Source of the DNA: Dehalococcoidia bacterium
GTDB taxonomy: Bacteria > Chloroflexota > Dehalococcoidia > Lucifugimonadales > QGNO01
Direction: 5' to 3'
Length of the DNA stretch: 64,000 nt
Assembly (NCBI GenBank): GCA_965220545.1
Contig: CBDCQF010000009.1
Span: forward strand, 84,660 to 148,659
How positions within the stretch are numbered: the stretch's first letter is position 1; every line of letters begins with the position of its first letter. The translations under genes were made by a program, and so were the position numbers. Shown here piece by piece: positions 7,039-41,062 of the stretch. The notes under the pieces are model-generated. The model saw only the letters and a list, made by a program, of their open reading frames with translations, ran no database searches and was not told the origin of the DNA.

Positions 7039-7965
7039 TTGGCTGCCCGGCGTCTTAGGATGTCAGGCCCGGATACCCGTCCACCTGAAATAGACCCCGA
7101 CCTCCTATCCTCCATAGAAGAGCACGCCGTCTCACTGGCCGCAAGCGCCGGTGAGTTGCTTCTGGACTACTTCCATCGTGATATGAAGGTGGAGTACAAG
7201 TCCGAAGGCTCAAGAAGCCCCGTCAGCGACGCCGACAAAGGCGCGGAACAGCTCATCGTCGATGGCATCCGCAGCCGCTTCCCCAATCACGGCATCCTCT
7301 CCGAAGAGACACCTCCGGCGGAAGACTTGGACCAGACCTTTGTTTGGGTTATAGACCCTCTGGATGGCACCACCAACTTCGTCAACGGCTTTCCTGTCTT
7401 CTCCTCCTCCATTGGCGTGCTCCACCACGGCAAACCCGTCGCGGGGGCCATCTACGTCCCGTCTCCAACCACGTCTGCCGGGCTGGTTTTTCACGCCCGT
7501 TGTGGAGGCGGAGCATTCGCCGGAGACACCCCCATCCGCGTCTACGATAAGCCCAAGCCTATGCCCAACGGCCTCGTCATGCTCCCCGCGGCTTTCTGGC
7601 GGCGATACCGTATAGGCAAGGAGTTGAGAAGGCTCGGCGAGTTGCGCAACATCGGCAGCACCGCTTACGAGATGACGCTGGTAGCTTCCGGGGTCATGCA
7701 GTACGCCGCCTTCTCCGCGCCCCACCCGTGGGACGTCGTCGCGGGAATAGCAATCGTGCGAGAGGCAGGCGGCGAGGTAACGGCAAGAACGTCCAATCAA
7801 TGGCTGCCCCTCGAATCGTTATACGGCGGCATGGATGCCGGTCGTTCCACGGAAGGAGACTTGTCCAAGTGGAGGGCCAGCCTGCTCGCCGGCAATCCCG
7901 CCATAGTCGCCCTCCTCAGCGAAAACCTCAAACCCGCCAAGCGCCTCTGGCTCTGGCCAAAGTAA
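7039..7965 (+). CDS. Inositol monophosphatase family protein (SuhB/CysQ-like)
   Basis: WVIDPLDGTTNF and WDVVAG motifs; alternative ATG start at 7060. Confidence 0.85.
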   Translation: MAARRLRMSGPDTRPPEIDPDLLSSIEEHAVSLAASAGELLLDYFHRDMKVEYKSEGSRSPVSDADKGAEQLIVDGIRSRFPNHGILSEETPPAEDLDQTFVWVIDPLDGTTNFVNGFPVFSSSIGVLHHGKPVAGAIYVPSPTTSAGLVFHARCGGGAFAGDTPIRVYDKPKPMPNGLVMLPAAFWRRYRIGKELRRLGELRNIGSTAYEMTLVASGVMQYAAFSAPHPWDVVAGIAIVREAGGEVTARTSNQWLPLESLYGGMDAGRSTEGDLSKWRASLLAGNPAIVALLSENLKPAKRLWLWPK

Positions 7966-8032
7966 CTCCCCCCTACCCTTCCAGGCAAAGCGTACCCTTT
8001 CTGTAGGGGCGGTTCGCGCGAACCGCCCAGAA
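7966..8032. repeat. A-long repeat (cccctaccct..cagg..tttctgtaggggcggttcgcg(cg)aaccgcccagaac), left copy flanking the AKR gene
   Basis: About 65-bp direct repeat of 9105-9168; palindromic core ggcggttcgcgaaccgcc. Confidence 0.85.
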
Positions 8033-8974
8033 CTACAGACTGTCCAGCCTCTCCATGAAATCCGGAGGTAGCCTTAAGTCTACTGCTCGGGCGTTCTCCG
8101 CTATCTGTTCAGGCCTGCTGGAGCCCACGACTATTGAATTGACGCCGGGTTTGTGCAATGCCCACGCCTGCGCAATCTGGGCCGGTGAATATCCCAGTTC
8201 TAAGGCTATGGAACTGAGTTCGCTCACCATGTGGAATGTCTGGTCATTCCACCAGCGTGCTTTGTCTTCCAATGCGTGGCGGGACGCTAGGTGACTATCT
8301 TTGGGCGGCCCCGACTGACGATTGTAAGTTCCCGTTAGCAGCCCGCCCATAAGAAGCAGGTACGGTATGATCCCCACTTTCTGGTCTAGACATAGGGGCG
8401 CCATTTCGCGTTCTATGTCTCTTTCCTTCAGGTTGTAAAGCAGTTGAATAGACTCGAACCGTTCCAGGCCCAGGCTGTCGCTGACCCACAGGGCCTTGGT
8501 CAGTTGCCATGCCGCGAAGTTGGAGCACCCTATATACCTGATCTTGCCCTGCCGCACCAGGTTATCCAGAGTGCGCAGCGTCTCCTCTATGGGAGTATAG
8601 GGATCCCACCAGTGCACCTGGTACAGGTCTATGTATTCGGTGCCCAGACGCCGGAGGCTGCCTTCCACCGCTTCTATCAGGTGCTTGCGAGAAAGTCCTC
8701 CGTCGTTGACGCCCGGACCGGTAGTGGAGAACCCTTTGGTGCCAATGACAAGCTCATGCCGGTTGTGACGTTTGACCGCCTTTCCAACAATCTCCTCCGA
8801 TCGACCATCGTAGTACAGGTCAGCGGTATCGATGAAGTTGATGCCGTTTTCAATTGCTGCATCCACCACAGAAATGGCGCGATCATCGTCCACGTACTCC
8901 GCGCCGAACATGTTGGTGCCCAGACAGAGTCTGGATACCGAAACGCCTGCGCGACCGATCCTGGCGTACTCCAT
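8033..8974 (-). CDS. Aldo/keto reductase
   Basis: MEYARIGRAGVSVSRLCLGT..., IDTADLY, GCSNF motifs; start taken at the MEY Met rather than the longest ORF. Confidence 0.9.
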   Translation of the reverse strand: MEYARIGRAGVSVSRLCLGTNMFGAEYVDDDRAISVVDAAIENGINFIDTADLYYDGRSEEIVGKAVKRHNRHELVIGTKGFSTTGPGVNDGGLSRKHLIEAVEGSLRRLGTEYIDLYQVHWWDPYTPIEETLRTLDNLVRQGKIRYIGCSNFAAWQLTKALWVSDSLGLERFESIQLLYNLKERDIEREMAPLCLDQKVGIIPYLLLMGGLLTGTYNRQSGPPKDSHLASRHALEDKARWWNDQTFHMVSELSSIALELGYSPAQIAQAWALHKPGVNSIVVGSSRPEQIAENARAVDLRLPPDFMERLDSL

Positions 8975-9104
8975 ACACATGCCTCCGCATGACACGAGAA
9001 GAAGCTTCGATGTTTGAAGGGACTATCACTTAACTTGTTGTGATTGTTCCCCTATTGCACTGTAGGGCTAACATACCAGTCTCAGAGCTTCCCAACAAAG
9101 TAGT

Positions 9105-9168
9105 TCCCCTACCCTGTCAGGCCAGACATGCCATTTCTGTGGGGGCGGTTCGCGAACCGCCCAGAACC
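9105..9168. repeat. A-long repeat, right copy flanking the AKR gene
   Basis: Direct repeat of 7966-8032. Confidence 0.85.
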
Positions 9169-9372
9169 GCTCATGATGAGCTTACAGAACCACCACCCTG
9201 ACCTAGAACTACTTGTCAGACCACCTTGTCAAGTAGGACAATAAGATGGGCCTGCCTAGTCTGCAATAACAACGGACTGGACAGGCGCTATTTATGCCGA
9301 ACACAACGTTGTGCATCTACGTGGTGCCATTAACCGTAAAGGCATGGCATGAGCATGGAGAAGAGGATATAG

Positions 9373-12300
9373 ATGAGCGGAAAACTCAAGTTGGCTGTAA
9401 CAGTTGCACTTGTCTCCCTGGTGGTCGCCTTGATAGCGTGCGACCCGGAACCCACGCCCACGCCGACTCCTCAGCCCACCGTCGCCCCGGCGCCTACGGC
9501 TACGGCTACCGCCACTCCTGAACCCACGGCCACGGCGACCCCAACGCCCACCCCAACCCCGGCCCCCACGGCCACGCCGGTAGCCCCCGCCGCTACTCCT
9601 ACACCCACGCCTACTCCTATGCCGGAGCCCACTGCAACGCCTACGCCTACACCCGAACCGGAGCCCGAGCCTCCTCTCGTCTTTGACCCCCTGGTAGTTC
9701 GCGGAACCCTTTCCAACGGCCTGAGCTACTACATCAGGCACAACGAGGAGCCTATCGGCCGGGCCCAGATCTCGCTCGCCGTAAAGGCCGGCTCCGTCCT
9801 GGAGACGGACGACCAGCAAGGCCTCGCCCACTTCCTGGAGCACATGGCATTCAACGGTACCGAGCGCTTCGCCAAGCATGAGATCATCGACTACCTTGAG
9901 TCCATCGGCAGCACGTTCGGCCCTGACCTGAACGCCCGCACCGGCTTCGACGACACCCTCTATTTCTTTGAGATTCCGACCGGCGATCCCGAGATAACCG
10001 AGAGAGGGTTCCAGATTCTCAGCGACTGGGCCTTCTCCATAGCGCTTGAACCGGAAGAGGTCGAGCTTGAGCGCGGCGTCGTGCTGGAGGAGTGGCGCCT
10101 CTCCCAGGGATTCGACTCGCGCCTCCAGCAGAACCTGCTCGATCTCCTCTTCAGCGACTCGCTCTACGCCAGCCGCGCCCCCATCGGCCTCACCGAGGTC
10201 ATCGAGAACGCCCCACCAGAGGCCCTGCGGGCCTACTACGAGCGGTGGTACAGGCCCAACTTGATGGCTGTGGTCGCCGTGGGCGACTTCAACGTGGAGG
10301 AGATCGAAGCCAAGATCAAGCAGTACTTCGCGCCCCCGCCCGAGGGCGAAGCCGCACAGGAGCGCGCCGCCATCGGACAATCCACCGACAGGCCGCAGAT
10401 CGACGTTCCGGGCCACGAGACCCCGCTCATCGAGGTATTCACCGACCCCGAGTCTCCAGCCACCCAGTTCGTGCTCATCCGCAAGTACGACCCCGAACCG
10501 ACCGAGGACGAGGCGGATTTCAGGCGTACTATCGTTGAGAGGCTCGCCTTCATGATGCTCAACGCGCGGCTGTTCGAGCGCGGCCAAGTCGCTGAATCGC
10601 CATACATCACCGCCAGCGCGACCCGTTACAACTACGTCTACACGCTTGACATCGCCACGTTTTCGGCCTGGGTCGAGACCGACGGCGTCGAGGCCGGCCT
10701 CGCGGCCATGCTCGAGGAGATTCAGCGCGCCCACCAGCACGGCTTCACCGAGGGCGAGTTGGAGCGCGAGAAGAGCAACCTGCTCAGCTCGGTCGAGAGC
10801 CGGTACAAGCAGCGAGACCAGACGCCCTCCACGAACCTCGCCAACGCGTACGCCGACCACTTCTTCATCGGAGACCCCGTCCCCGGCATCGAGGCCGAAT
10901 GGGAGCTGTACCAGCAACTCTTGCCGCAGATCACCCTGGCCGAGTTCGCTGACGTGGCGCGGTCCTGGGCACAGACCGAGGACCTGGCCCTGCTGGTGGT
11001 GCGTCCCGAGGAGACCGACGTCGCGGGCGCCGACGACGATCTTGGCACGGCCCTGCTGACCCAGATGCAGACGGCCCACGCCCTGGCGGTGGAGCCCTAC
11101 GCCGACGACGTCGGTGACGTCCCGCTGCTGGCCAACCTGCCGGAGCCGGGGACCATCACCGCCGAAGAGCGAATCGAGTCCATCGATGCCGTGAAGTGGA
11201 CGCTGTCCAACGGCGTCACCGTCATCGCCAAGCAGACCGACTTCCGCGATGACGAGGTGCTGTTCAGGGCCTTCAGCCCCGGCGGCCACTCGCTCGTCAC
11301 CGACGAGGAACACCAGTCCGCTATCTACGCCGCCCAGCTTATCTCAGGCAGCGGCGCGGGCCCTCACGACAGCGTGACCCTGGATAAACTGCTCGCTGGC
11401 AAGAGGGTTTCGGTTGCGCCGTTTATTGGAGAGTTATTCGAAGGTCTTTCAGGCAACGCTTCTCCCGAGGACCTGGAGACCCTGTTCCAGCTCGTGACGC
11501 TGTATGCAACCGAGCCGCGGCTCGATCCCGACTTCTTCACGAGGTACAAGGCAAGGCTCCACAGCGTCGCCGAGTTCCGTGCCGCCGACCCGGATTCGGT
11601 CTTCTTCAACTCCATAAACAGTCTTCTCAGCCAGGGCCACCACCGCGGGCGGCCCTTCTCCGTCGAGGTGCTGGAGGAGCTGGACATGGAGACTGCGGAG
11701 GCCGTCTACGCCGACCGCTTCGCGGACTTGGGCGACGCAACATTTGTCTTCGTTGGCGCGTTCGACTGGGACAACCTGCGGTCGTTGACCGAGACTTACC
11801 TGGCCAGCCTGCCTACCACTGGCCGCGCCGAGGAGTGGATCGACCACGGCATCGACCCGCCGGTGGGAATAGAGGACCTCGTTGTCCGCAGCGGCATTGA
11901 GCCGCGCAGCAACACGGTCGTGGTGTACGCCGGTGATATGGAGTGGAGCCGTCAGGAGGTGCTCACACTGGACGTTGCGGGCGAGATGCTGGGGATTCGT
12001 CTGCGGGAGCGGGTGCGCGAGGAGCTGGGCGGCACCTACAGCATTGGGGTGAACGCGGGCGGCTCCAGCCTGCCGGACGAGGAATACCTGGTCTCCATAA
12101 TCTTCGGCAGCGACCCCTCTCGCACCGAGGAGCTCTTCGGCGAGGTTCTGGATGAGGTGGAGTGGCTGCGCATGGGCGGCGAGCAGGAGCTCCTGGATAC
12201 TGTCAAGGAGCTTCGGCGCACTTCCCGGCAGGAAGACCTGCGGAACAACGGGTTCTGGCTCAATCAGATCAGGGCTGCGGCGCAGCGGGGCGAGTCGTTC

Positions 12301-13886: not shown

Positions 13887-14075
13887 CGTTCGTCGTTCCT
13901 GCGCATAACCTCTTCCCCCTCAACGGGGGAAGATTGAGATGGGGGTGACACCGCAGCCCACAAACCACCCCGCGAGGGGCAAACCACCATTATTCGTCGT
14001 TCCTGCGCAGGCAGGAACCCAGGTGGGGCGCAGCGGCGGGGGCTTCCCTCCTTGCCCCGTATGTCCGTTCTTGAC
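13887..14075. repeat. Intergenic repeat mosaic (modules C, E, C, F)
   Basis: cgtcgttcctgcgca...; ctcttccccctcaacgggggaagattgagatgggggtga; ccttgccccgtatgtccgt. Confidence 0.9.
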
Positions 14076-18185: not shown

Positions 18186-18374
18186 CTGTTATTCTGAGGA
18201 GCGGACAGCGACGAAGAATCCAAAGCCTCCCGCCCTCCTCCCTCCGTCGTTCCCGTGCAGACGGGAACCCAGGGCGGCGCGGGGCGCATTCCCTCTTTCC
18301 CCCTTGATGGGGGAAGACTGAGATGGGGGTGACGCTCCTCCCTCTTCCCCCTTCACGCCCTCTCCTGTCATTCT
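18186..18374. repeat. Intergenic repeat mosaic (modules B, C, E, then the left half of a B module cut by the IS)
   Basis: ctgttattctgagga..gaagaatccaaagcc; cgtcgttcccgtgcagacgggaacccagg; ccccttgatgggggaagactgagatgggggtga; cctgtcattct at 18364-18374. Confidence 0.9.
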
Positions 18375-21834: not shown

Positions 21835-22238
21835 ACGTCATGCCCGTGAAGACGGGCATCCAGGGACGGTGGGCATGGACTCACGTTCATGGTGAGCCTG
21901 TCGAAGGGAGTGAGCGGTCGCCCACACCGTCGTTCCCGCGCAGGGGACCTTTGTAACATCTTCCTCCTTGACGGGGGAAGATTGAGATGGGGGTGAACCT
22001 GCGTGGGCAGCCTTAATCAACCCCCCGACGAGCATCCAGGGTGTCCACTCCCTGTCCGCTCACCCTGAGCCTGTCGAAGGGAGTGAGCAGGCGGCGCCAC
22101 ACCGTCATTCTGAACGTAGTGAAGAATCCCAAGCCTCTGCCCGCAAAACCACGAAAACCCATCCGTCTTTCCCGCGCAGGCGGGAACCCAGGGGCGGCAG
22201 AAAACACTACCCGCTTACCCTGAGCACAGCCGAAGGAA
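21835..22238. repeat. Intergenic repeat mosaic (modules C, D, C, E, D, B, C, D)
   Basis: ~400 bp made almost entirely of recognisable modules. Confidence 0.9.
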
Positions 22239-27416: not shown

Positions 27417-27849
27417 CCATTGCGAGAAACATTGTAGGGGCGGTTCGCGAACCGCCCCTGCTACCCCCACGTCTTGCCCGCGCAGGCGGGAACCCACGCA
27501 CGCACACCTCCCTACCGTCATTCCGTGCGCCACACTGTCATTCTGAGCGCAGCGAAGAATCTTCTACCACAACAAACTAGGTCCCTCTACCCGCAAACTC
27601 CGTCCGCCTTCACCCACCCCCAGTCACCATTGCGAGAAACATCGTGGGGCGGTTCGCGAACCGCCCTGCTACCCCCACGTCTTGCCCGCGCAGGCGGGCA
27701 TCCAGGGGTGGTGGGGTATAGACTCCCGCCTTCGCGGGAGTGACGACAATACGCACCCGCCCACACTGTCATTCTGAACGGAGCTCCGCGTAGTGAAGAA
27801 TCCAAAGCCTCCGTTGCCAGCCTGCCCGTTTGCCCGCATGTCACTCCCC
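27417..27849. repeat. Intergenic repeat mosaic including two copies of a ~75-bp A+C compound unit 210 bp apart, plus B, B, F modules
   Basis: ccattgcgagaaacat(t/c)gt(a)ggggcggttcgcgaaccgccc(c)tgctacccccacgtcttgcccgcgcaggcggg at 27417 and 27627; third copy near 12525. Confidence 0.9.
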
Positions 27850-31125: not shown

Positions 31126-31129
31126 ACTC

Positions 31130-31298
31130 CCCGCTCACCCTGAGCCTAGAGTTTACCCTGAGCACCGCCGAAGGGAAGGAAATGAGCGGCCCCCACCCCG
31201 TCTTTCCCGCGCTATCCCTTCCGTCGTTCCCGCGCAGGCGGGAACCCAGGGGCGGAGGGGAGTTTACCCTGAGCCTGCCGAAGGGTCATGCTGAGGAG
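31130..31298. repeat. Intergenic repeat mosaic (modules D, D, C, C, D)
   Basis: ccgctcaccctgagcctagagtttaccctgagcaccgccgaaggg; cgtcgttcccgcgcaggcgggaacccagg. Confidence 0.9.
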
Positions 31299-31410
31299 TC
31301 GGTTGACCTCCATGGCTCTGCTTTCTGCCACAGGGTGGGGATGGTAAAGAAAGCCATAGGGGGGAGAAGAGGCGCCCACTGAAGTAACCTTCCAAGCGAA
31401 GTCACTAACC

Positions 31411-31773
31411 CTAAGTTGAATCGTCAGCTTCCTTGAAGAATCCCGCACTGGGCAGTACCCGAATGTCCGCTACCGAGCAATCATCCTTACGGTACGTTAT
31501 AATAGCCCTACCACGCACAGGCACGCCGTACAGGTTACTTGACTCAAACTCAACACCGAAGTGATCTAGGGACTCGTCATCAGGTGGGTTGGTCAGTGAG
31601 ATGGCTACATCCTTCAAGTCCAGTGTAGCAGGGAAATCGACCGCTTGCTCTATCTCCTGCACAACCTCTTTCTTGGCATCAGACCAACAACTATAGTGTG
31701 GACTGCTCAACTCTGAACATCCGACTATCGCCAGAGCGGCCACGGCCACGAGTATCCACGCAACCATCTTCAT
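31411..31773 (-). CDS. Small lipoprotein, unknown function
   Basis: 120 aa; signal peptide plus lipobox AIVGC; AT-richer than its surroundings. Confidence 0.55.
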   Translation of the reverse strand: MKMVAWILVAVAALAIVGCSELSSPHYSCWSDAKKEVVQEIEQAVDFPATLDLKDVAISLTNPPDDESLDHFGVEFESSNLYGVPVRGRAIITYRKDDCSVADIRVLPSAGFFKEADDST

Positions 31774-31902
31774 TGAGGGTCACTCTACTTCTCAGGTTGT
31801 GAGCATGTCAAACGAGGCGCTGAATTCAAACTACGGACTGATACGCTGCAGGCAACTACCTGCCTGGGCACTCAGAACACAAACACGAATTATCAATCCC
31901 CC

Positions 31903-32018
31903 TCTCGTCATGCCCATGTAGGCTTTTCCTCGTGCCCCGACACGGGGAAGAGCATCCAAGCAAGGGCGGGACCCTCTTCCCCGCTCACCCTGAGCACTGT
32001 CGAAGGGAGTGAGCAGCC
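31903..32018. repeat. Intergenic repeat mosaic (C-variant, D)
   Basis: cgtcatgcccatgtagg..ccccgacacgggg; ccgctcaccctgagcactgtcgaagggagtgagc. Confidence 0.85.
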
Positions 32019-32099
32019 GCAAAATAACATTAGTGAACCAATGCACTAATCCGCGTTTTATTGTAGAATGCCGCTCGGACTGGTACCTTCCTCTAACAC

Positions 32100-35363: not shown

Positions 35364-35522
35364 CACTGTAGGGGCGGTTCGCGAACCGCCCTCCCATCCG
35401 CTCCTCCCCCCACCCGCTCATGGTGAGCCTGTCGAACATTTGAGCGGGAATACACACACCGTCTTTCCCGCGCAGGCGGGAACCCAGGGATGGGGGTGCA
35501 ACCCCCTACCTCTTGCCCGTTC
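35364..35522. repeat. Intergenic repeat mosaic (modules A, D, C, F)
   Basis: gtaggggcggttcgcgaaccgccc; ccgctcatggtgagcctgtcgaac; cgtctttcccgcgcaggcgggaacccagg. Confidence 0.9.
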
Positions 35523-36270: not shown

Positions 36271-36285
36271 ACCCTCTCCAGGCAT

Positions 36286-36360
36286 TTGCATAACCTCTTC
36301 CCCCTCGACGGGGGAAGATTGAGATGGGGGTGCAAACTCCGTCCACCTGCCCGTCTGTGC
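36286..36360. repeat. Intergenic repeats (modules E, F)
   Basis: cataacctcttccccctcgacgggggaagattgagatgggggtg; ctccgtccacctgcccgtctg. Confidence 0.9.
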
Positions 36361-36447: not shown

Positions 36448-36813
36448 ATGGGACTGGACGTCGGCATCATCGCCATTCAATACCTGCCCCGACCCACGGG
36501 TCACGCCTACGAGTTTGCCTGGGAGCTTGCCGCCGAGGCCGGCGCTTACGGCTATATGCATGGCGAGGGCAACAACTGGGGCGGATTCAGCCAGCGCCAG
36601 GTGCTCCGCATGCTCGACGAATTCACCGCAAGAGAGCAGCTCGACACCCCGGCGCGAACCGAGATCATCGACTGGCTGAGGTCACTCCCCTGGGACGACT
36701 GGCAAGACGACCTGCCCTTGCCCGCCGCCACCAACGACGATGACGAAGACCCCATCCTAGACCACGACCCTGACCAACACGGCGGCCTAATTGAGCTCCA
36801 TTTCAACTGGTAG
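36448..36813 (+). CDS. Acidic hypothetical protein (121 aa)
   Basis: ATG at 36448 after a GGAGG SD; host-like G+C; D/E-rich C-terminal third. Confidence 0.55.
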   Translation: MGLDVGIIAIQYLPRPTGHAYEFAWELAAEAGAYGYMHGEGNNWGGFSQRQVLRMLDEFTAREQLDTPARTEIIDWLRSLPWDDWQDDLPLPAATNDDDEDPILDHDPDQHGGLIELHFNW

Positions 36814-36834
36814 AATCAAAGTAGAGGTACTAGA

Positions 36835-37482
36835 ATGGCAAAGATTATGAAACAGCAACTGGATCCTTCACTGTACGAAAGCATTGGTTACGACGACTTA
36901 GTAACTTATGCCGTATACAAGTTGGTTTCAGAGGATTCTAATGGTGGCGAGGCAACGTTTGAAGATATTGTTGCTCAAGCCTTCACCTTGTTCCCTAAAC
37001 GATTTGGTTTACGTGGGTACAATCAGTGGCCAGACTCAGCCGTAGTAAACAAGAGTTGGCTGAGGTGTCGCACTGACAAAAAATACATCACCGGTAGCGT
37101 AAAGGATGGATTCAAGCTTACCCAGCGAGGACTAGAGATCGCCGAAAACGTTGAACAAAAACTCGGCAATAACACCGTTCCATCTTCTGGAGTATCAAGG
37201 ATCAAGAGTGAATTGCGCACCCGCTCAGGACGGTTGCTGCGTTCGTTGGAGCAAACCTCCGCTTTTCAAGCATTTGACAAGACCCGTGACGTTGAAGGTC
37301 TAACGACGGATGATTTGACTGATGTCCTACTTACACTTCCGGATAGCCCGCCAAATCGCTTACGGAGTAATCTAGAGCAGTTCAGAGACGCCGCAAAGTT
37401 ATACGAGCGTAGCGACGTACTTGAATTCTTGGACGCGCTAGAAACTAAGTTTGCGCTCAGACTTGGTATTAGAAGGAACTAA
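36835..37482 (+). CDS. Hypothetical protein, possible N-terminal winged-helix domain (gene A of the AT-richer two-gene operon)
   Basis: 215 aa; visibly low G+C; stop TAA shares one nt with the ATG of the next gene. Confidence 0.6.
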   Translation: MAKIMKQQLDPSLYESIGYDDLVTYAVYKLVSEDSNGGEATFEDIVAQAFTLFPKRFGLRGYNQWPDSAVVNKSWLRCRTDKKYITGSVKDGFKLTQRGLEIAENVEQKLGNNTVPSSGVSRIKSELRTRSGRLLRSLEQTSAFQAFDKTRDVEGLTTDDLTDVLLTLPDSPPNRLRSNLEQFRDAAKLYERSDVLEFLDALETKFALRLGIRRN

Positions 37483-39374
37483 TGGTAATTCGTATATCTC
37501 GCGCAATGGGCTATGCCGACAGACTTGGCGTACAGCAAGCTGATCAAGCCATAAAAAAGGATATCGTACGCGCGCTTGTTGAATTAGTAACCAATAGTGA
37601 CGATAGCTATAGGCGCATTGAGAATAATGGTCGAGATGTTGATGGACGAATAATCATCGAATTGCAGAGGCGAAGGAGGAACGATTCCACCATCAGAGTT
37701 ATTGACTTTGCTGAAGGCATGGATAGCCCAACTATGGATCATGCACTTGGCAGATACGCTGAGGACACCAGCGGGTTTTCAAGTGGACAGCCTGTAAGAG
37801 GATACTTTGGACGTGGTGTTAAGGACGCGATCCTTGGTTTAGGTGAAGGGCTGGTTAGAAGCATTGTAGATGGTCGTATGCACCTTGCTCGACTTAGCAT
37901 CAGAGATGGACGTCCTCACTATGAAAGCTACAAACCCACCCCTGCCCCAACTAAACCAAGCTCAAACGCTTCGATCGTTGAAATCAAAATCACCAGAGAC
38001 GATATCAGGATTCCGCAGTTTGAAAACCTCCGTAGACAATTGTCATTGCACTTTGCTCTACGGGATATTCTAGATAACCATAAGCGGGAAATTTTGCTTA
38101 GGGAGTTGGCTCCCAACAATAGTCGCAGACATGAGATCCAATTAACGTATCAATTTCCTGTTGCACAGCATGTATCTACAGAATCTGTTCCCGTTGGAGA
38201 CTCTGGCACCGAGTGTGAAGTCACTCTATATAAAGCAACGGAACCCCTGGATACGCCACGAGAAGCAGGGCCTTCTGCACAAGCAGGCCTTTTGATTAAA
38301 GGCACTAATGCAATATTTGAAAACACTCTCTTCAAGTTCGACGGCGTAGTCCATTCGCAGAAATTCTTCGGCAGAGTAACTTGTCCTTATTTAGACCAAC
38401 TGTTGCGCAAAAATGAACCGATTGTCCTGGCTACCAGAGATGGATTAGACCGTTCACACGCCTTCGTTAAGGACTTGTTCCAAGCCTGTGAAAATTTCCT
38501 GCAGCCCTTCATTGATGAGGAAGCAAAGCGAGCCAGAACAGAAGAACGCCGCGTTCAAAGTGCGCAACTTAGGCAGAAACTGTCACAAGCCCTCACAGAA
38601 TTAAACCGAATAGCTAGAGAGGAATTGGCGGCTCTTGATCCAGGAAATGATCCAGAGACTCCAAATCCTTTCGTTCCTGCCAGCGGGTTTGGATTTGTCC
38701 CGGACATGACCAATGTTGCCCTTACAAGAAGGAAGACTCTCTTGGTTCGTAGTTTAACGCCCCAAATCATACCCGAAGGCTCCTTAGTTAATGTTTCATC
38801 CGAAGACCAAAATGTGATCATCGCTACCCCAAACGTTACGATAGAACCTAGAGAGGACTTTCCATGGATCGGAGAGGCTAAAGTTATTGTTGAGGGAACA
38901 CAGGTAGGAGCAGAAAGTATCATCGTGGCCGAGTGTGAAGGCCTGATGTCGGAAGCTTTGGTAAGAGTGATTGTAAGAGAACCACCAGATGGCGGCAACG
39001 TTGAGAGAAGACGTCGTGGTGGCTTGTTTAATGAGATTAAATTCTCTGAACAGCAAAACCCTAGACAACGAGTTCGATATGACGAGCAAACTCAAGACAT
39101 CATCGTTGCAATAAACCACAGTTCCGTGAGTCCATATATATCTGACTCCGCTGGCACAGGAACTGACACAGCACAAGGACAGGTAATACTAGCCGAGCTC
39201 GTATCAGAGGCCGTTTGCAACGCTATAGCTATAAGAGGAGTCCGAACTGGGCGGTTCCCAGCCCCGGTTGGAGGCGATGTAGAGGCAATCCAAGTACAAC
39301 AACTACGATTGCAAAATCTCTATGCTGGGCCCATTCACAGAGCATTTGTAAATCCAGAATTCAGGCAGGCCTAG
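37482..39374 (+). CDS. GHKL/Bergerat-fold ATPase (HATPase_c_3, MORC/Hsp90-like) with central coiled-coil and Ig-like C-terminal region
   Basis: N box ELVTNSDDS, G1 VIDFAEGMD, G2 GYFGRGVKD; EEAKRARTEERRVQSAQLRQKL coiled coil; Big_2-like beta-rich stretch (VNVSSEDQNVIIATPNVTIEP...IVEGTQVGAESIIVAE). Confidence 0.65.
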   Translation: MVIRISRAMGYADRLGVQQADQAIKKDIVRALVELVTNSDDSYRRIENNGRDVDGRIIIELQRRRRNDSTIRVIDFAEGMDSPTMDHALGRYAEDTSGFSSGQPVRGYFGRGVKDAILGLGEGLVRSIVDGRMHLARLSIRDGRPHYESYKPTPAPTKPSSNASIVEIKITRDDIRIPQFENLRRQLSLHFALRDILDNHKREILLRELAPNNSRRHEIQLTYQFPVAQHVSTESVPVGDSGTECEVTLYKATEPLDTPREAGPSAQAGLLIKGTNAIFENTLFKFDGVVHSQKFFGRVTCPYLDQLLRKNEPIVLATRDGLDRSHAFVKDLFQACENFLQPFIDEEAKRARTEERRVQSAQLRQKLSQALTELNRIAREELAALDPGNDPETPNPFVPASGFGFVPDMTNVALTRRKTLLVRSLTPQIIPEGSLVNVSSEDQNVIIATPNVTIEPREDFPWIGEAKVIVEGTQVGAESIIVAECEGLMSEALVRVIVREPPDGGNVERRRRGGLFNEIKFSEQQNPRQRVRYDEQTQDIIVAINHSSVSPYISDSAGTGTDTAQGQVILAELVSEAVCNAIAIRGVRTGRFPAPVGGDVEAIQVQQLRLQNLYAGPIHRAFVNPEFRQA

Positions 39375-39650
39375 CCCCTAACACCCCCCTGCCATCTCCA
39401 CCTTCCCCATCCCCCTACGCCCTTGCTATCCTTGCCTCACCATGACAAACACCCATACCCCACGTCGCCCCGATTCCCATGGCGGAATCCGCCGCTTCCC
39501 TGAAGAAAATCCGATTCGTTTCTCACCTCAAAAAAATTTTGGTTCGTTTTAGCCTTGCTGCTTGACATAACGTTGGAAACGAATACCCCGCCCAACTCTG
39601 CCCATCCACCCGCTTGCCCGTCTGCCCCCATCTCCGCTATCCTAACCCCC

Positions 39651-40907
39651 GTGAAGCTCATCCACTTCGCTGACCTCCACATCGGCGTCGAGAACTACGG
39701 CAGGCCCGACCCCGATACCGGCATGTCCACCCGCCTCCTCGACTTCCTCTCCGCCTACGATGAGATGGTCCAATACGCCATCGACAACCGCGTCGACGCC
39801 GTCATCTTTGCCGGCGACGCCTACAAGAACCGCGACCCCTCCCAGACCCACCAGCGCGAGTTCGCCAAGCGAATCGCCCAGCTAGCCTCGGAGGGCATCG
39901 CCGTCTTCCTCATCACCGGCAACCACGACCTTCCCGCCGTCGCCGGGCGCGCCTCCGCCCTCGAGATATTCCCTACCCTAGCCGTAGAGCGCGTCCACGT
40001 CTCGGACCGCATTGAGACCACCCTCCTCCGCACCCGCTCCGGCCCCCTCCAGGTCGTCTCCCTGCCCTGGATCAGGCGCAGCCGCTTCCTCACCCGCGAC
40101 GATACCCGCAACCTCACCATAGACCAGATTACCCAGCGTCTCCAGGAGCGACTCACCTACAGCCTCACCTGGGAGCTCCAGAACCTCAAGCCAAACATCC
40201 CCGCCATCCTCGTCGGCCACGTCACCGTCTCCGGCTCCAGGGTCGGCGCCGAGCGATCCATGATGCTCGGCCGCGACCACGTCCTCCTCCTCTCCACCCT
40301 CTCAGACCCCTCGCTGGACTACGTCGCCCTCGGCCACATCCACAAGTACCAGGTCCTCGGCCACAACCCCATGATCGTCTACCCAGGCAGCATGCAGCGC
40401 GTCGACTTCTCTGAAGAGACCGAGTCCAAGGGCTTCTGCGTATTGGAGATCGACCCGAACCTACCCCAGGGTCAACGCCTCGCCAGCTTCGACTTCCAGC
40501 CCGTCCAGGCCCGCACCTTCATCACCATCGACGTCGATATCCCCGCCCACACCGACGACCCCACCCGCGCCGTCCTCGAAGCCATCGCCCGCAAGTACGT
40601 CAGCCAGGCCATAGTCCGGGTACGCATCAGTCTGCCCGAGGAGTTGGAGCCGCGCCTCCGTGAACCGGACATCCGCGCCGCCCTCAAGGACGCCCACCAC
40701 ATAGCCTCCATCCAGCGCAACGTGGTCCGCTCCCGCCGCACCCGCATAGCCCCCGAAGCGGGCCGCGGCCTCTCCCCCGCGGACGCCATCCGCCTCTACT
40801 TCACCGTCCGTGACACCGACCCCAAGCGCGCCCAGACCCTCCTCGCCCACGCCGACGCCCTCATCCAAGAGGAACTGGAAGATTCCCACCACGAACCGCC
40901 CGCCTGA
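39651..40907 (+). CDS. sbcD: Mre11/SbcD-family metallophosphoesterase nuclease
   Basis: GTG start; IHFADLHIGV, FAGDAYK, ITGNHD, GHVTV, LGHIH motifs; no sbcC-like gene follows. Confidence 0.85.
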   Translation: MKLIHFADLHIGVENYGRPDPDTGMSTRLLDFLSAYDEMVQYAIDNRVDAVIFAGDAYKNRDPSQTHQREFAKRIAQLASEGIAVFLITGNHDLPAVAGRASALEIFPTLAVERVHVSDRIETTLLRTRSGPLQVVSLPWIRRSRFLTRDDTRNLTIDQITQRLQERLTYSLTWELQNLKPNIPAILVGHVTVSGSRVGAERSMMLGRDHVLLLSTLSDPSLDYVALGHIHKYQVLGHNPMIVYPGSMQRVDFSEETESKGFCVLEIDPNLPQGQRLASFDFQPVQARTFITIDVDIPAHTDDPTRAVLEAIARKYVSQAIVRVRISLPEELEPRLREPDIRAALKDAHHIASIQRNVVRSRRTRIAPEAGRGLSPADAIRLYFTVRDTDPKRAQTLLAHADALIQEELEDSHHEPPA

Positions 40908-40914
40908 CCCCCTC

Positions 40915-41062
40915 GTCATGCCCGTGTCGACGGGCATCCAGGGGTGGGGCACTCCGTCATTCTGAACGTAGCCCCCGCCGTCATGCCCGTGTCGACGGGC
41001 ATCCAGGGGTGGGGCCTCTGTCATTCTGAAGGTAGCGTAGCGAAGTGAAGAATCCAAAGCCT
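40915..41062. repeat. Tandem 65-bp C+B compound repeat (2 copies)
   Basis: gtcatgcccgtgtcgacgggcatccaggggtggggc identical at 40915 and 40980, each followed by gtcattctgaa... Confidence 0.9.

Follow-up and report, generated by a model that had tools for sequence, protein, structure and literature searches.

What does a compact, AT-rich pair of genes do amid the housekeeping genes of a Dehalococcoidia bacterium, and how did it come to lie there? The window analysed here is a stretch of 64,000 nucleotides (nt) of contig CBDCQF010000009.1 (assembly GCA_965220545.1, positions 84,660 to 148,659 of the forward strand), and the pair consists of gene A, for a putative DNA-binding protein, and gene B, for a GHKL (Bergerat-fold) ATPase (Table 1). 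We propose, at a probability of about 0.5, that A and B form a mobile, DNA-targeting conflict or defence cassette built on an ATP-gated clamp. An initial annotation made from the letters alone had put the pair forward as a candidate conflict/defence module. As a candidate this reading holds, and its strongest support is the replacement of the cassette by other genes at exactly the same site in two relatives, L090 and L091 (L-numbers denote homologous loci compared with the window, P-numbers protein relatives).

The flanks of L090 are 84-90% identical to the window at the nucleotide level and colinear with it from HisRS to HPPK, with the sole exception of the cassette. Using blastn, homology ends at 36815 and restarts at 39382, and in between L090 holds 3.4 kb of other genes encoding an HhH-GPD/HTH protein, a DndB-family protein and a C5 DNA methylase. 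In the more distant L091 the same site contains VapBC, the 121-residue gene that precedes A in the window (gene C) and then an Mrr_N protein, followed by SbcD. The segment 36816-39381 is a variable slot, occupied in relatives by known defence genes. In L001, the nearest relative with the pair, an additional PaREP1 gene and an aspartyl-protease-like gene lie between B and SbcD. Other neighbours of A and B include HEC-01 together with an AAA_15 pair (L002) and an OLD-family ATPase with ParE (L004), and in L007 a transposase and an integrase adjoin the pair. The case for a defence context rests mainly on the swap at the window site.

Base composition delimits the same segment. Every 500-nt window between 36750 and 39249 has a G+C content of 0.45-0.48, compared with 0.61-0.69 on both sides, and the switch is abrupt, with its onset directly after the stop of the 121-residue gene (36813) and its end at the stop of B. 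At third codon positions, the G+C content (GC3) is 0.468 in A and 0.403 in B compared with 0.72-0.89 in the eight nearest flanking genes; an Lgt gene of 253 residues and HPPK, further downstream, have values of 0.64-0.65. The lower G+C of the pair, first noted by eye, was thus borne out as a sharp drop on computation. The junction AAC TAATG GTA likewise confirmed the coordinates and the translational coupling of the two open reading frames (ORFs), as base 37482 is both the last A of the TAA (37480-37482) and the A of the ATG (37482-37484). No terminator-like site was found between the 121-residue gene and gene A, therefore A is likely co-transcribed with this upstream gene. At the cassette borders in the window we found neither a tRNA nor an Rfam family, no integrase or transposase, and no direct or inverted repeats that would convincingly flank the cassette. 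Among sequencing runs, the locus was present in DNA runs only. The remainder of the window is housekeeping, including fumarate reductase, HisRS, aconitase, H+-pyrophosphatase, Lgt and HPPK.

Protein B has the ATP site of a GHKL ATPase. The three Bergerat motifs of the HATPase_c_3 type proposed by the initial annotation are found at residues 34-42 (ELVTNSDDS), 73-81 (VIDFAEGMD) and 107-115 (GYFGRGVKD), and the elements ExxxNxxD, DxxxG, GxxGxG and T follow each other in the order expected for GHKL proteins. We assign E34, N38 and D41 to motif I, D75 and G79 to motif II, G107, G110, G112 and K114 to motif III and T164 to motif IV. E34, N38, D41, D75, G79, G107, G110 and G112 are invariant in 60 B homologues, down to 27% identity, and T164 is kept in at least 90% of them. 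The sole Pfam family matched by B is PF13589 HATPase_c_3 (26.4 bits, cut-off 25), which was matched in 55 of the 60 homologues with a best value of 6.2e-12. No second Pfam domain was found in B or the 60 homologues, and NCBIfam and PADLOC yielded 0 families for B. A housekeeping family covering the full length of B was not found, since only the GHKL domain is recognised. Domain scans of B and its homologues found no toxin-type domain, and no fused effector was seen in longer or shorter B variants or in long A variants.

Both proteins were modeled as monomers with AlphaFold, B on its family alignment. The B model (predicted local distance difference test score, pLDDT, of 92) consists of an N-terminal strap, the ATP-binding domain, a transducer, a long helix, a beta-rich domain, a small beta unit and a helical hairpin. 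This picture modifies two details of the initial annotation. Its charged coiled coil is predicted as one single helix of 59 residues, and its Big_2-like segment is indeed a predicted beta-rich domain while a Pfam match to Big_2 or any other Ig domain is absent from B and the 60 homologues. The two-helix hairpin (564-622) contains the family C-terminal motif QRVRYD ... AELVxEAVC, in which E572 is invariant, and on the model this end may serve in dimerisation or partner binding. R319 and G321, in a loop of the transducer, are invariant among homologues, which makes this loop a candidate gamma-phosphate sensor.

Comparison of the model with the protein data bank using Foldseek gave a probability of 1.0 to Topo VI-B, MORC2/3, GyrB/ParE, Hsp90/TRAP1 and MutL, and 370-440 columns align B to the GHKL plus transducer modules of MORC2/3, GyrB, ParE, MutL and TRAP1. 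As in these proteins, the predicted transducer follows directly after the ATP-binding domain, and these matches place B in the clamp-type branch (GyrB/Hsp90/MutL/MORC/Topo VI-B). The best full-length match to a solved structure is Methanosarcina mazei Topo VI-B with 658 columns, an E-value of 3.5e-12, a TM-score of 0.36 and 9-10% identity. At the level of sequence profiles, only the ATP site was matched, best by MORC3 over 78 residues (E 3.5e-4) and also by Hsp90-family proteins. Judged on its predicted structure, B is a clamp-type GHKL ATPase outside every named family of that branch.

How B differs from each of these families is instructive. Like B, MORC2 and MORC3 combine a HATPase_c_3-type GHKL domain with a transducer and then a long helix (TM-score 0.49-0.55, target side), and the ATP-driven dimerisation of MORC proteins on DNA would be the expected chemistry for B too. 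However, the coiled coil of MORC proper is inserted in the ATPase module, whereas the helix of B comes after the transducer, and B lacks a CW or other reader domain while it has an extra beta domain, the conserved C-terminal hairpin and a separate winged-helix partner. Sequence similarity covers about 80 residues only. With the 78-residue match, the position of the helix and the lack of a reader domain, B was rejected as a member of the MORC family proper. Topo VI-B offers the longest structural alignment and the same series of GHKL domain, transducer, long helix and beta-rich C-terminal domain, but its Top6A/Spo11 partner (Toprim plus 5Y-CAP) is missing here. A is not Top6A-like, has no Pfam or Foldseek match to Top6A/Spo11, and no ORF of this type lies nearby, so a type IIB topoisomerase was rejected. 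The N-terminal modules of MutL, GyrB and Hsp90 have the same GHKL plus transducer fold and ATP-lid motifs; B lacks the MutL C-terminal endonuclease, the Toprim and GyrB C-terminal domains and the HSP90 family domains. MutL was rejected because neither DNA_mis_repair nor MutL_C nor any match beyond the ATP-binding domain was found in B or the 60 homologues with Pfam and NCBIfam. A histidine or anti-sigma kinase, including CapK, was rejected as well, as HisKA and STAS are absent and a transducer is present. Phage rIIA shares the N-terminal ~340 columns with B but differs in its C-terminal half.

Protein A is predicted to be a winged helix-turn-helix (wHTH) protein with a helical tail, in line with what had been read from its sequence. 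The model (pLDDT 89.5) displays a canonical winged helix followed by five helices; helices 19-33, 42-52 and 68-80 and strands 85-88 and 92-95 form the wHTH at a pLDDT of about 95. Its recognition helix, NKSWLRCRT, is basic and nearly invariant, as is Tyr14. The tail may serve for docking or dimerisation. Foldseek matches are weak and fall on wHTH proteins (MukF-N, MntR/DtxR, PadR, MarR); the best has an E-value of 0.038, and no solved structure matched the fold of A below 1e-3. The resemblance to the kleisin MukF, at E 0.038, is a lead only. No family was found for A in Pfam, NCBIfam or PADLOC, where a DruH match (E 0.016, 11 bits) is at chance level, and sequence comparison with solved structures gave chance-level matches, e.g., to ribosomal eL21, which were rejected. 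A profile search collected 1088 representatives of the A family. Some members, of 282-590 residues, contain a Lys/Pro/Ala-rich, histone-H1-like insert of 100-350 residues between winged helix and tail. One of these genes precedes a B homologue with 39% identity, which strengthens the assignment of A as the DNA-binding subunit.

Are A and B a unit elsewhere? A word-based search returned 135 B and 86 A homologues, nearly all unnamed and many on common contigs. In 185,579 genomes, one per species, 277 loci were found in about 20 phyla, i.e., in ~0.15% of species genomes. They include Chloroflexota, Acidobacteriota, Verrucomicrobiota, Lentisphaerae, Ignavibacteria, Nitrospirota, Planctomycetota, Gammaproteobacteria and Clostridia as well as several groups of the candidate phyla radiation (CPR), Nitrososphaerota, Bathyarchaeia and DPANN archaea. 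Among 69 loci with enough flanking sequence, A adjoins B in 50 (directly upstream in 46, downstream in 4), so the two are conserved as neighbours across many phyla. The coupling is tight in all seven gene-called loci, where the two genes overlap or are separated by no more than 23 nt. B from Acidobacteriota, Lentisphaerae, Xenobia and Chloroflexi is in each case 43-44% identical to B of the window, therefore similarity does not track taxonomy. The 19 loci without A belong to two clades, Anaerolineales and Dehalococcoidia with a short B, and synteny is conserved in both. B-only genes are accompanied either by an upstream membrane protein with a RecD-like helicase nearby or by tandem paralogues of ~300 residues.

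All-against-all comparison of the neighbours showed that the core pair gains different small genes in different clades. In six phyla a MazE/AbrB antitoxin and a PIN toxin are encoded directly upstream of A, and in the gene-called locus L006 the PIN gene overlaps the start of A, which suggests a four-gene operon variant, MazE-PIN-A-B. A basic helical protein of 71-88 residues precedes A in CPR bacteria, Nitrospiraceae, Gammaproteobacteria, Ignavibacteria and one DPANN archaeon, and an acidic, Trp-rich protein of 70-90 residues follows B at four loci. In Chloroflexi the accessory neighbour is the acidic gene C.

Between the window and L001, the ratio of nonsynonymous to synonymous substitution rates (dN/dS) is 0.05 for A and 0.12 for B; therefore both genes are clearly under purifying selection and functional. 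Synonymous divergence (dS) is 0.93 for A and 0.69 for B and three to four times lower, 0.17-0.27, in the flanking genes. The alleles may predate the surrounding chromosome, which would imply recombinational exchange, or synonymous sites may simply be less constrained in low-GC genes. Over all 52 loci compared, the module is poorer in G+C than its flanking sequence (median -0.05, Wilcoxon p = 7e-5); 31 of 37 A+B loci are shifted in this direction, whereas B-only loci are host-like or slightly higher in G+C. The pair also occupies the same HisRS..SbcD interval, in a different gene order, in Chloroflexi with flank proteins 43-57% identical to those of the window. There A is 52% and B 44% identical, both diverging in step with the flanks, and the AT bias is kept. 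Horizontal acquisition had been suggested from the compositional contrast, but because of this shared interval a recent event would be too simple an account. The cassette has either resided there for long and kept its AT bias or been recaptured repeatedly at this hotspot.

Viral relatives extend the family further. In IMG/VR, B relatives with 25-28% identity were found only on five giant-virus contigs and on one 129-kb viral contig, L099. The giant-virus copies have no A neighbour; the exception is L099, where at 7248-10172 an A-like gene lies directly upstream of a B-like gene of 746 residues. The closest full-length structural matches to B are two uncharacterised proteins in BFVD, Hokovirus A0A1V0SGC9 (E 3.4e-27) and Yasminevirus A0A5K0UA26 (E 3.5e-24), with TMq values of 0.48-0.51. 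Full-length structural relatives of this kind are a hint of exchange between the domains of life.

What could such a pair do? GyrB, Hsp90, MutL, MORC and Topo VI-B have an established behaviour that leads us to expect B to be a constitutive dimer, joined by the long helix and the C-terminal hairpin, whose N-terminal ATP gates would close upon ATP binding to form a clamp. A would be the DNA-binding subunit; its winged helix would contact DNA and bring it to the clamp while its helical tail docks on B. The complex might then entrap, compact or mark invading DNA in an ATP-dependent, MORC-like manner. In some clades the core could be wired to the small accessory proteins, and MazE-PIN may supply a killing or arrest output. 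As the core contains no nuclease, a protective effect would come about in one of three ways: invading DNA would be silenced or obstructed in the manner of MORC proteins, a host nuclease would be licensed or, in the MazE-PIN clades, the companion toxin would be released. Dimerisation, contact between A and B, entrapment of DNA and protection against phages or plasmids are the steps of this scheme that we infer by analogy. The specific clamp-and-silence mechanism is a tentative proposal, less probable than the defence reading itself. Doubtful, and bolder, is the idea that A and B are the core of an unrecognised pan-prokaryotic immune system with giant-virus relatives, in which the clamp and a histone-like winged-helix adaptor would topologically entrap or silence foreign DNA uncut as a counterpart of eukaryotic MORC silencing, with swappable small modules (MazE-PIN, the acidic C-type proteins, a basic 75-residue protein) tuning sensing or output.

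There are precedents for GHKL ATPases in defence. Prokaryotic MORC and paraMORC proteins (Iyer, Abhiman & Aravind 2008, cited in PMC12137116 and PMC8011034) are reported in restriction-modification and defence contexts. VcSduA, a GHKL-Shedu protein, acts in anti-phage immunity, and a dimeric clamp controlling an output has been proposed (PMC12137116); SLFN-pAgo-GHKL is a further example of a GHKL ATPase in anti-phage immunity (bioRxiv 10.64898/2026.05.29.728809). The ATPase is fused to a nuclease (DUF4263) in the former and to Argonaute in the latter, whereas B has neither domain, and the PADLOC Shedu model did not match B. CapK/CapS and VapKSC are GHKL proteins that regulate adjacent immune operons (PMC13373217). 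Like A and B, CapK/CapS places GHKL and wHTH proteins side by side near immune genes, and the VapKSC trio controls a VapC/PIN toxin in a way that resembles the MazE-PIN-A-B operons (PMC13373217). However, CapK is an HTH-STAS-kinase of the anti-sigma type with no transducer and CapS a STAS-wHTH protein; A and B lack STAS, and their gene order is reversed. New in the present case are the family, the partner protein and the lack of a fused effector. The view of the initial annotation that the pairing corresponds to no named system agrees with the literature, in which no paper describing the A+B pair was found, and with the PADLOC search described below.

Several observations weigh against a defence cassette. 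No nuclease or other effector domain is recognisable in the core pair, and the search of PADLOC-DB v2.0.0 (2023) assigned neither A nor B to a defence system, whether named or candidate. B was found in none of 50,697 phage and 72,556 plasmid records using tblastn, so no transfer vehicle was seen, and the hosts of all 277 loci are metagenome-assembled and uncultured. Several loci lie amid plain housekeeping genes, e.g., Mfd and the pyr operon in L008. A census of 148 neighbour ORFs from 15 loci, made with no background control, returned mostly housekeeping genes and few matches to defence models (HEC-01B, PDC-S01/S04/S05, PD-T4-4_A, SoFic, NsnB, AriA). The cassette may be old and vertically kept in the Chloroflexi with 43-57% identical flanks, and the two B-only clades, in which G+C is host-like and synteny is conserved, seem to carry domesticated cellular versions passed on vertically. 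Such versions would fit a cellular chromatin or DNA-repair accessory, that is, a nucleoid-associated, ATP-driven and MORC-like DNA organiser serving the host chromosome. The H1-like inserts of the A subfamily, the strong purifying selection on both genes, the housekeeping neighbours at many loci and the proximity of SbcD (window, L001, L004, L010), Mfd (L008) and, next to solo B, RecD-like helicases all agree with this. Against it, the pair is scattered over phyla and present in only ~0.15% of species genomes; it is dispensable, as L090 and L091 carry defence genes in its stead, it is strongly shifted in AT and GC3 as accessory DNA typically is, and the adjacency to SbcD persists without it as synteny. 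We consider this explanation unlikely.

Alternatively, A could be a repressor and B an ATP-dependent sensor for neighbouring effectors such as the PIN toxin, comparable to CapK/CapS, CapW or BrxR. The wHTH protein is encoded first in the operon, variable small genes and MazE-PIN are attached to the core by clade, and GHKL controllers of adjacent immune operons exist in CapK/CapS and VapKSC (PMC13373217), but the window and most other loci contain no effector to control, B has a clamp-type transducer instead of a compact kinase with no STAS or HisKA found, and with 630 residues and five domains it is large for a pure regulator, which makes this role quite unlikely. Just as improbable in our estimate is a selfish addiction or toxin-antitoxin-like module, or a relic of a mobile element, maintained by a post-segregational effect or by hitch-hiking with no role in defence. 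Such a module would fit the order of a small DNA-binding gene before a larger, translationally coupled enzyme gene, the AT-rich composition and patchy distribution, the association with a bona fide MazE-PIN toxin-antitoxin in several phyla and the transposase and integrase of L007; against it stand the window borders, clear of integrase, transposase, terminal repeats and tRNA, the absence from plasmid and phage collections, and B itself, in which a toxin-type domain is lacking. Very improbable is a degenerate or novel type IIB topoisomerase-like machine with B as a Topo VI-B homologue and A in place of the Top6A/Spo11 winged-helix subunit. The best full-length structural match with its identical domain order, and the winged helix and nearly invariant Tyr14 of A, are countered by the low TM-score and identity of that match, by MORC, GyrB and MutL matching almost equally, and by A having no Toprim, acidic metal-binding cluster or Top6A/Spo11 fold, with no such gene nearby. 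The conflict/defence cassette remains our preferred reading of A and B: a well delimited and phylogenetically broad candidate that has no name, for which the evidence is good but circumstantial.

If the pair protects cells, it would extend the known repertoire of prokaryotic immunity by a clamp-based mechanism that needs no nuclease, in hosts that defence research has hardly reached so far (Chloroflexota, CPR bacteria, DPANN, Thaumarchaeota). It would also provide a tractable prokaryotic model for MORC-type recognition and silencing of foreign DNA, a question still open in eukaryotes. Whatever the function, the interval from gene C to sbcD is a cleanly delimited defence hotspot and as such a practical lead.

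Table 1 Features of the window and of related loci. Positions refer to the window unless a locus is named.
Feature	Position or locus	Strand	Basis or remark
Gene C, 121 residues, acidic	36448..36813	+	GC3 0.795, host-like; flanks hotspot
AT-rich spacer, 21 nt, from stop of gene C to start of gene A; GAGGT ribosome-binding site	36814..36834	+	direct sequence reading
Exchangeable cassette (leader, gene A, gene B)	36816..39381	+	blastn vs L090; limits match low-GC block
Gene A, 215 residues; putative DNA-binding partner protein	36835..37482	+	ORF
A 19-95, wHTH (three helices and beta hairpin)	36889..37119	+	model, conservation
A 97-205, five-helix tail	37123..37449	+	model
Gene B, 630 residues; GHKL ATPase with transducer and C-terminal domains	37482..39374	+	ORF
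B 1-175, N-terminal strap (1-24) and ATP-binding GHKL domain	37482..38006	+	invariant columns, HATPase_c_3, profile match
B 180-325, transducer-like alpha/beta domain	38019..38456	+	model, Foldseek, invariant columns
B 327-385, one charged 59-residue helix; candidate coiled coil in a dimer	38460..38636	+	model
B 403-497, beta-rich (possibly Ig-like) domain	38688..38972	+	model strands
B 518-622, small beta unit and two long helices with conserved C-terminal motif	39033..39347	+	model, conservation
SbcD-type nuclease gene	39555..40907	+	TIGR00619, 6.7e-41; right-hand hotspot anchor, outside cassette
REP-like repeats	12570, 13903-14023, 16823, 18243-18331, 21836-22197, 27470-27707, 31190-31285, 35408-35518, 36279-36332, 40907-41036		
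MazE-PIN pairs	L006 8696-9333; L013 8627-9299; L015 1947-2644; L022 8663-9300; L029 8651-9360; L079 8659-9327		
Gene C homologues	L090 8001-8366; L091 8001-8366; L094 6001-6348; L002 8521-8805 and 8874-9167		
A relatives with H1-like insert	P0293, P0309, P0333, P0378; L092 1233-2522		
B-only loci, Anaerolineales	L019-L025, L034, L052		
B-only loci, Dehalococcoidia	L045, L050-L055, L058, L059, L063, L064		B of ~500 residues
Giant-virus metagenome-assembled contigs with B relatives	L095-L098, L100		

Gene C is host-like in composition, as first described, but it is not a mere bystander, because it recurs beside A and B and beside other defence genes. Its homologues adjoin A and B in L001, L002 (two copies), L004, L008, L010, L011 and L086, and gene C lies tight against the pair in four non-syntenic contexts. 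At loci without A and B, homologues adjoin DndB and a methyltransferase (L090), VapBC and Mrr_N (L091) or an AIPR abortive-infection gene (L094). The family, of about 70 proteins and with no Pfam match, is restricted to Chloroflexi; members also occur beside an AAA_15 pair. For gene C itself, NCBIfam and PADLOC gave no family either. Gene C was rejected as a third core component since its GC3 is host-like, it stays where A and B are replaced (L090, L091, L094) and it is found in Chloroflexi only. Probably it either flanks the hotspot or is a shared accessory gene. Its family might be a marker of defence hotspots or a shared accessory or regulator, and searches with it could uncover further unknown systems in Chloroflexi genomes.

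On the other side of the cassette, the adjacent Mre11/SbcD nuclease recognised in the initial annotation is an SbcD by its TIGR00619 match. No SbcC partner was found beside it in the window, L001, L004, L090 or L091, and the four longest ORFs of the window are not SbcC-like. We rejected a functional link with A and B: L090 and L091 have SbcD at this place although they lack the pair, so the adjacency is lineage synteny, and A and B occur elsewhere without SbcD. The start of SbcD is probably the GTG at 39654 and the listed TTG at 39555 wrong, because homology begins at the former (TIGR00619 match from residue 34).

A second variable slot lies in the HisRS/frdA interval at 31126-32099, with a G+C content of 0.54 and small ORFs only. 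It includes an ORF of 120 residues on the minus strand (31411-31773) whose hydrophobic N-terminus, MKMVAWILVAVAALAIVGCS, is signal- or lipoprotein-like by eye. The slot holds a NotI restriction-modification pair in L001 and an AAA_15/AAA_21 ATPase with a gene of 185 residues in L090. Finally, three families of short, GC-rich, palindromic intergenic repeats resembling repetitive extragenic palindromic (REP) elements are dispersed over the window, for example CGTCTTTCCCGCGCAGGCGGGAACCCAGGG with at least 10 copies. Copies are present in L001 and L090 too. None of the repeats lies exactly at the cassette borders.

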